Shown here piece by piece: positions 14,078 through 15,130 of a stretch of DNA of 64,000 nt. The stretch lies in assembly GCF_003334405.1 (NCBI RefSeq), contig NZ_QOWM01000004.1. One strand, given 5' to 3'. Position 1 is the first letter of the stretch, and each line of letters begins with the position of its first letter. The notes below the pieces were generated by a model. It had not been told where the DNA came from. It did no database searches and saw nothing but the letters and a program-made list of their open reading frames with translations. The position numbers and the translations under genes are program-made. Source of the stretch: Escherichia coli. Its GTDB lineage: Bacteria; Pseudomonadota; Gammaproteobacteria; Enterobacterales; Enterobacteriaceae.

Positions 14078-15130
14078 ATGCCAGTGTTACACAACCGCAT
14101 TTCCAACGACGCGCTAAAAGCCAAAATGTTGGCTGAGAGCGAACCGCGAACCACCATTTCGTTTTACAAGTATTTCCACATCGCCGATCCTAAGGCGACC
14201 CGTGACGCTTTATATCAGCTGTTTACCGCGCTGAATGTTTTTGGGCGAGTGTATCTGGCGCATGAGGGCATTAACGCGCAAATCAGCGTACCTGCGAGCA
14301 ATGTTGAAACATTTCGCGCGCAGCTCTATGCCTTCGACCCGGCTTTAGAGGGTTTACGCCTGAATATCGCGTTGGATGATGACGGGAAATCCTTCTGGGT
14401 ACTGCGCATGAAGGTACGCGATCGCATTGTTGCCGACGGTATTGACGATCCTCACTTTGATGCCAGCAATGTTGGTGAGTATCTGCAAGCGGCGGAAGTG
14501 AACGCCATGCTTGACGATCCCGATGCACTATTTATCGACATGCGTAACCACTATGAGTATGAAGTGGGGCACTTTGAAAACGCGCTCGAAATTCCGGCAG
14601 ATACCTTCCGTGAGCAGCTGCCAAAAGCAGTCGAGATGATGCAGGCACATAAAGATAAAAAAATCGTCATGTACTGCACCGGCGGCATTCGTTGTGAAAA
14701 GGCCAGTGCCTGGATGAAACATAACGGATTCAACAAAGTCTGGCATATCGAGGGCGGAATTATTGAATACGCCCGTAAGGCGCGCGAGCAGGGCTTGCCG
14801 GTGCGTTTTATTGGCAAAAATTTTGTTTTTGACGAGCGGATGGGCGAACGTATATCGGATGAGATTATCGCGCATTGCCACCAGTGCGGCGCGCCGTGCG
14901 ACAGCCATACCAACTGTAAAAATGATGGCTGCCACCTGCTGTTTATTCAGTGTCCAGTATGCGCGGAAAAATACAAAGGTTGTTGTAGTGAGATTTGCTG
15001 CGAAGAAAGCGCGTTACCGCCAGAAGAACAGCGACGCCGTCGGGCAGGACGTGAAAATGGCAATAAGATCTTTAATAAGTCTCGTGGACGTCTGAATACA
15101 ACACTGTGCATTCCTGATCCAACAGAATAA
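14078..15130 (+). CDS. trhO: TrhO (YceA), rhodanese-domain tRNA U34 hydroxylase
   Basis: ORF track 14024-15130 trimmed to [17 protein letters not shown]; rhodanese active-site segment [10 protein letters not shown] and a Cys-rich C-terminal tail. Confidence 0.9.

Follow-up and report, generated by a model that had tools for sequence, protein, structure and literature searches.

TrhO is an unusual enzyme, a protein of the rhodanese fold that uses O2 to hydroxylate U34 of tRNA and for which no cofactor is known; the human homologue, TSTD2, is likewise uncharacterised in function. TrhO of Bacillus subtilis (YbfQ) belongs to the same family as the Escherichia coli protein and has the same three domains, with the Rhodanese_C domain directly after the rhodanese domain as in E. 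coli, and a cryo-EM structure of the B. subtilis enzyme with tRNA-Ala (317 residues modelled) was released on 2026-01-21 (PDB 9J5O). An orthologue in P. aeruginosa is functional in vivo (PMC12288880). A shorter type is found in Legionella pneumophila, in which Lpg2838 (PDB 4F67), like other short TrhOs, shares the UPF0176_N plus rhodanese core and the CTGGIRCEK loop at ∼32% identity. These Legionella-type proteins, of 249–284 amino acids, have neither PF12368 nor a cysteine cluster (120 of 120 clusters), and the 4F67 structure ends just past the rhodanese domain; they are putative TrhOs, so named by NCBI and UniRef.

Other tRNA U34/U54 enzymes, of the TtuA/Ncs6 type, carry Cys4 zinc modules on the catalytic core, with a presumed role in structure or in handling the tRNA, and the chemistry is left to a separate Fe-S cluster. 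We know of no Fe-S cluster in TrhO, and we detected no sequence or fold relationship between the TtuA/Ncs6 zinc fingers and the TrhO domain described here. The PHD, FYVE, ZZ and RING domains resemble the arrangement we propose for TrhO in that they likewise bind two zinc ions through interleaved pairs (1+3/2+4) within ∼50 residues of little secondary structure. Profile and fold searches yielded no significant fold or sequence similarity to PHD, FYVE, ZZ or RING; the weak neighbours were the CFP1 PHD finger (E 0.0024) in the profile search, and rabphilin FYVE, ZZ and PHD in the fold searches.

The trhO gene that we analysed lies in a window of 64,000 nucleotides from E. coli (contig NZ_QOWM01000004.1 of assembly GCF_003334405.1), to which all positions refer. 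The features of the gene and its domains are as follows.

14078 to 15130, plus strand: trhO (yceA) coding sequence, an ORF of 350 aa plus stop, with the product O2-dependent tRNA uridine(34) hydroxylase
14150 to 14428, plus strand: UPF0176_N acylphosphatase-like domain, aa 25–117 (Pfam PF17773, E 3e-22)
14489 to 14773, plus strand: rhodanese domain, aa 138–232 (Pfam PF00581, E 2.7e-16)
14675 to 14692, plus strand: catalytic loop C200-T-G-G-I-R205 (CXGGXR), read from the sequence
14813 to 14998, plus strand: Rhodanese_C domain, aa 246–307 (Pfam PF12368, E 9.8e-21, 74.3 bits)
14876 to 15001, plus strand: cysteine cluster, aa 267–308, with the pattern C-x2-C-x3-C-x5-C-x4-C-x6-C-x2-C-x6-CC-x3-CC

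Many complete E. coli genomes have an annotated trhO (yceA) with exactly this DNA sequence (100% identity), and a match was found in every genome searched (5426/5426). The gene context, lpxL-trhO-yceI-yceJ-solA with yceO also nearby, is as in E. coli, and the protein scores above the cut-off of the NCBIfam equivalog NF001133 (260.1 bits versus 170), a model that stops at aa 258 of E. coli TrhO. The ATG at 14078 is backed as the start codon by the RefSeq annotation and by all homologues. The program-called ORF runs 18 codons further upstream, to a TTG at 14024 (window positions 14024–14077).

The first two domains hold the residues for which mutational data are available. The rhodanese loop, CTGGIRC, spans aa 200–206 with cysteines at 200 and 206, and in one family alignment C200, T201 and G203 were invariant and R205 nearly invariant (at least 90%). 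The enzyme cannot do without C200, T201, G203 and R205 in vivo, and the K112A and R114A mutants show defects (Sakai 2019, PMC6599085); K112 and R114 belong to the basic beta-sheet and sit in the UPF0176_N domain within ‘LRMKVRDR’. The third domain, Rhodanese_C (aa 246–307), is directly C-terminal to the rhodanese domain (aa 138–232), and its match covers positions 2–65 of the 66 in the PF12368 model. The precomputed Pfam annotation of an identical protein (P0001) likewise gives PF12368, and Sakai et al. 2019 (PMC6599085) had depicted Rhodanese_C in the E. coli enzyme.

The cysteine cluster, which the earlier note had described as a Cys-rich tail on TrhO, is this known Rhodanese_C domain, for which both the zinc content and a homologous structure are already public, and the novelty that the description implied is not supported. 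The peptides quoted in that note are all present in the plus-strand ORF at 14078–15130. Its start at position 14900 corresponds to aa 275 and clips C267, C270 and C274, since the cluster begins 24 nt earlier, at 14876, and the cluster is not within the last 60 residues, where it had been placed, but 43–84 residues from the C-terminus. The figure of about 12 cysteines in CxxC-like spacing is right for the 11 that are clustered, at 267, 270, 274, 280, 285, 292, 295, 302, 303, 307 and 308 (11 in 42 residues), but the twelfth, C344, is outside the module, and only two pairs are true CxxC pairs (267–270 and 292–295), the other conserved spacings being Cx4C and Cx3C. The binomial tail for at least 11 cysteines in 43 residues is ∼2e-12, given a background cysteine frequency of ∼1.15%, which is our own estimate; the rest of TrhO has 2 cysteines in 265 residues.

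Structure prediction, which had been suggested as a check, gives a confident model of this region. For full-length E. coli TrhO, AF2 gives a mean pLDDT of 91, and the Cys domain is modelled with pLDDT values of 90–98 (pTM 0.88); the domain modelled in isolation has a pLDDT of 90.9. The full-length model aligns with the B. subtilis structure 9J5O with TM scores of 0.77/0.85 over 321 columns, and 9J5O is the sole significant structural match to the isolated domain model (E 1.6e-3, TMq 0.63).

To find which of the clustered cysteines are conserved, we turned to distant homologues. A first search gave only relatives that were at least 79% identical, and the diversity came from searching 1.84 billion cluster representatives, among which 419 matched at E ≤ 1e-30. 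Conservation was counted in the 115 sequences that cover the C-terminal domain among the best 150 of these 419 matches; the full-length proteins among the best 150 are 33–63% identical to TrhO. The 115 homologues include Buchnera, a fungus, an oomycete and marine protists, and the residues of the domain are conserved among them as follows.

C267, C270, C280 and C285: Cys in 115/115 homologues
C292 and C295: Cys in 114/115 homologues
C303: Cys in 112/115 homologues (97%)
C307: Cys in 82% of the 115 homologues, nearly all others having Cys at 308 (the ‘TCGxxxxC’ variant)
C274: Cys in 47% of the 115 homologues
C302: Cys in 51% of the 115 homologues
C308: Cys in 20% of the 115 homologues
His 286: His in 52% of the 115 homologues

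Indeed, eight cysteines are the sole invariant columns of the domain, in two MAFFT alignments and in comparisons of 55 and of 115 sequences. They define the family motif C-x2-C-x9-C-x4-C-x6-C-x2-C-x7-C-x3/4-C, and all eight are present in the TrhO of the window. Of 119 clusters from the Enterobacterales, 117–118 retain C274 and C302, while C308 is not conserved. In these alignments C274, C302 and C308 are lineage-specific extras, and they would be second-shell cysteines. The TrhO of Buchnera aphidicola (P0126 and P0394–P0396; 316 aa), an aphid endosymbiont with genomes of ∼0.62 Mb, is full-length and keeps all eight ligand cysteines; retention of all eight in genomes that small argues that selection does constrain the zinc domain.

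Many homologues of 400–930 aa, and one of 1563 aa from Lagenidium giganteum (P0128), have the TrhO core and the eight-Cys domain inside much longer proteins. Many of the top homologues are apparently eukaryotic, and those that can be named are from a fungus, an oomycete and marine protists. One record among the long homologues has the UniRef name polynucleotide adenylyltransferase and an NCBI flag of LOW QUALITY.

The pattern in which the eight cysteines are lost suggests how they are divided between two sites. The four pairs are listed here with the site numbers of a preprint that reports metal-site predictions (10.1101/2025.11.10.687516).

14876 to 14887, plus strand: candidate site A, first knuckle, C267-x2-C270; 100% Cys, lost together in Bacillaceae; preprint Site 2
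14915 to 14932, plus strand: candidate site B, first pair, C280-x4-C285; 100% Cys, kept in Bacillaceae; preprint Site 1
14951 to 14962, plus strand: candidate site A, second knuckle, C292-x2-C295; 99% Cys, with C295 lost and C292 relaxed in Bacillaceae; preprint Site 2
14984 to 14998, plus strand: candidate site B, second pair, C303-x3-C307; kept in Bacillaceae, with the last ligand at 308 in the ‘TCGxxxxC’ variant; preprint Site 1

In 120 clusters from the Bacillaceae, relatives of B. subtilis YbfQ, C267, C270 and C295 are missing, the equivalent of C292 is variable (C/S/L/A/T/V), and C280, C285, C303 and C307 are kept. The complementary loss occurs in a metagenomic protein, P0141, which keeps cysteines at 267, 270, 292 and 295 and has none at 285, 303 and 307. 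Because the co-losses in the Bacillaceae and in P0141 fit a cross-brace and not sequential sites, the eight cysteines are, from their pattern of loss, assigned to two predicted interleaved Cys4 sites, site A (267/270/292/295) and site B (280/285/303/307). We derived this partition before we met the matching listing in the preprint, in which predictors applied to AlphaFold structures give a Site 1 of 280, 285, 302, 303, 307 and 308 and a Site 2 of 267, 270, 274, 292 and 295 (10.1101/2025.11.10.687516, supplement). If the sites were instead sequential (267/270/280/285 and 292/295/303/307), the Bacillaceae losses would damage both of them and four cysteines would be strictly conserved needlessly; the sequential model, which we reject, is also at odds with the predicted sites of the preprint. 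P0141 (317 aa) and a second protein, P0168 (290 aa), are metagenomic singletons from short contigs; P0168 has no Cys domain and instead has an acidic helix at its end.

The E. coli and B. subtilis enzymes thus have the four cysteines of site B in common (the equivalents of C280, C285, C303 and C307), and the B. subtilis and other Bacillaceae proteins have room for one Cys4 site, with the equivalent of C274 conserved instead. E. coli TrhO, unlike B. subtilis TrhO, has both sites, the extra cysteines C302 and C308, and a basic tail of 42 residues. The division into site A and site B shows which mutants would probe the role of the domain.

The metal in these sites is probably zinc, and an Fe-S assignment is not supported. 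Purified FLAG-TrhO contains mainly Zn by ICP-MS, with an occupancy of ∼2 per protein; by Metal-LiP, the protease accessibility of TrhO 259–298 shifts with DTPA, EDTA, EGTA, TETA and TPEN, and dipyridyl, an iron chelator, is the only chelator without effect on this region in native lysate (10.1101/2025.11.10.687516). These zinc data are those of one preprint and of an aerobic FLAG purification, and TrhO was omitted from the zinc-saturation experiment, with low yield given as the reason (10.1101/2025.11.10.687516). The ferredoxin and radical-SAM motifs CxxCxxC...CP and CxxxCxxC are absent from aa 260–310, and the Pfam search matched TrhO to no Fe-S family. The earlier note had suggested a metal or Fe-S binding module; the metal half of this suggestion agrees with the eight invariant cysteines, the two Cys4 sites and the ∼2 Zn reported, but the Fe-S half finds no support.

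Beyond the domain, the protein ends in a basic helix and a tail.

15014 to 15055, plus strand: post-domain basic helix, aa 313–326; AF2 helix at 315–323, nearly invariant in Enterobacterales
15056 to 15127, plus strand: predicted disordered C-terminal tail, aa 327–350; AF2 pLDDT <50, conserved in Enterobacterales, holds C344

A motif similar to aa 313–326, ‘LPxEEQxxxRxG’, occurs in many distant homologues. The segment of aa 313–348 (15014–15121), which ends in ‘..L.IPDP’, is nearly invariant across the 119 Enterobacterales clusters; it has the look of a conserved, basic linear motif that would serve tRNA or a partner, and no described function for it came to light. The last 42 residues (15002–15127) contain only one cysteine, C344. 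This residue (codon 15107–15109) is polymorphic within E. coli, in which it is C, G, D or V; the Cys344 and Gly344 versions each head E. coli clusters of ∼2900 members, and most Enterobacterales have Gly. Since C344 alternates with G, D and V among E. coli clusters, we place it outside the zinc module. What the analysis gains, in addition to the corrected coordinates, is that the eight ligands are set apart from the three lineage-specific cysteines and from the polymorphic C344.

Taken as a whole, the observations are probably best explained by a Rhodanese_C domain with two cross-brace zinc sites that is a structural accessory of the enzyme and an aid in docking the tRNA. Two zinc ions would hold together a domain of ∼55 residues with little secondary structure, and this domain would be docked on the rhodanese domain and stabilise the enzyme. 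Together with the basic helix that follows (aa 313–326) and the tail, the zinc domain may help to hold or orient the tRNA, and the O2-dependent chemistry would take place at the C200 loop of the rhodanese domain and not in the Cys domain. The identity of the domain, its eight invariant cysteines, their partition into sites, the zinc content and the chelator-sensitive conformation come from the present analysis or from the literature; a probable structural, non-catalytic role with a contribution to tRNA docking is what we infer from them. The evidence favours a structural double-zinc module, one that Pfam includes, for which two Zn are reported and which the deposited TrhO-tRNA structure contains. 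The distinction matters, because if the Cys domain did take part in redox chemistry it would be a key to the mechanism of TrhO.

Four observations argue that the domain is an accessory. First, the mo5U34 that remains in a trhP1/trhP2 mutant of B. subtilis depends on ybfQ, and YbfQ is thus functional with site B only. Second, the proteins of the Legionella clade bear the name TrhO although PF12368 is absent from them. Third, the NCBIfam TrhO model ends at aa 258, ahead of the cluster. Fourth, TrhO purified aerobically on HisTrap can hydroxylate a tRNA transcript when the mixture contains Tris, NaCl, MgCl2 and 2-mercaptoethanol, with no metal or cofactor added. The literature that we searched contained no anaerobic purification of TrhO, and no truncations of the domain or mutants of its Cys ligands; the mutations in Sakai 2019 (PMC6599085) were limited to C200–C206, K112 and R114; the earlier statement that the role of the module in U34 hydroxylation is unclear therefore holds for this literature. 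Two observations pull in the other direction. Strict conservation of the eight cysteines, from Buchnera to eukaryotes, is stronger than might be expected of a dispensable accessory, and turnover in vitro is sub-stoichiometric, with 10 equivalents of enzyme giving 75% product (Sakai 2019, PMC6599085), so that the assay may have lacked a cofactor or reductant.

If the zinc ions stabilise a module for protein-protein contacts, the domain might recruit a partner, either a reductase or an xo5U enzyme like CmoB, rather than contact the tRNA. Small cross-brace zinc modules such as PHD, FYVE, ZZ and RING commonly recognise proteins or ligands, and the weak, non-significant structure and sequence neighbours of the TrhO domain are all of the cross-brace type; moreover, aa 313–348 are predicted to be disordered and yet are nearly invariant in Enterobacterales, like a linear interaction motif. 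However, no partner is known, trhO is monocistronic with lpxL and yceI as unrelated neighbours, and the domain is ordered in the binary TrhO-tRNA complex (9J5O). In addition, TrhO alone hydroxylates tRNA in vitro (Sakai 2019, PMC6599085), and we regard a partner-binding module as unlikely.

Zinc-Cys4 sites can also be redox switches, as they are in Hsp33 and RsrA. In TrhO, the zinc-thiolates and the extra cysteines (the vicinal pairs C302–C303 and C307–C308, and C274) could form such a switch or an internal source of electrons. Oxidation would free zinc and either regulate TrhO under oxidative stress or supply two electrons, with near single turnover in vitro. Hydroxylation with O2 needs two electrons, and the assay, which is sub-stoichiometric, has 2-mercaptoethanol as its only source. 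Three extra cysteines lie beside the ligands in E. coli and its relatives, with C274 and C302 present in nearly all of the Enterobacterales clusters, and trhO is reported to be in the IscR-activated regulon, which responds to oxidative stress and Fe-S shortage. These points have to be set against the poor conservation of the extra cysteines in the family as a whole (47% for C274, 51% for C302 and 20% for C308) and against the orthologues that have a single site or no domain. No experiment points to disulfide formation or to release of zinc from TrhO, and YceA shows no sulfurtransferase activity with thiosulfate and GSH, which leaves a sulfur or thiol relay unsupported. Overall, a redox switch seems to us quite unlikely.

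The regulation of trhO bears on the nature of the metal as well. Activation of the trhO promoter by IscR, via a type II site, is reported in the study from which the link between IscR and trhO is taken here (PMC8561392). We scanned the intergenic region between lpxL and trhO (13917–14077) with a type II consensus and found no match with up to one mismatch; at the same threshold, the number of matches across the whole window is that expected by chance. Type II sites are bound by apo-IscR, and activation through them is a response to Fe-S shortage. Such activation fits an enzyme that is independent of Fe-S clusters.

This regulation is among the points that count against Fe-S clusters, or another redox metal, bound by the eight cysteines in vivo. 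Such a centre would feed electrons to the reaction or activate O2, and the zinc would be an artefact of replacement during aerobic purification. The eight invariant cysteines, an O2 activation mechanism with no identified cofactor and the need for excess enzyme in vitro, as if a cofactor had been lost, could all be accommodated in this way, and several proteins have Cys4 sites that were first described as binding zinc and were later shown to carry Fe-S clusters. The reported metal, however, is mainly Zn at ∼2 per protein, and five chelators act on the region whereas dipyridyl does not. Aerobically purified TrhO is active without added iron or reconstitution, and the spacings within the two Cys4 sites (CxxC, Cx4C, CxxC and Cx3C) are those of zinc knuckles. 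Finally, B. subtilis TrhO is functional in vivo with one site only, and the Legionella-type proteins have none. We therefore hold an Fe-S or other redox metal in these sites to be highly improbable. The broader proposal, that the domain is a redox-active centre, whether Fe-S or an oxidisable zinc-thiolate pair, which feeds electrons to hydroxylation at the rhodanese cysteine or gates it, would, if true, explain both the strict conservation of the eight cysteines and the sub-stoichiometric activity of aerobically purified TrhO; we give it an equally slight chance. A role in a sulfurtransferase or persulfide relay is not supported, since purified YceA has no thiosulfate:GSH activity.

Downstream, trhO converges with yceI across a gap of 41 nt. 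Within this gap is a hairpin with a stem of 12 bp, including 6 G-C pairs (window 15135–15163), which scored as terminator-like on the minus strand and may be a bidirectional terminator shared by trhO and yceI.
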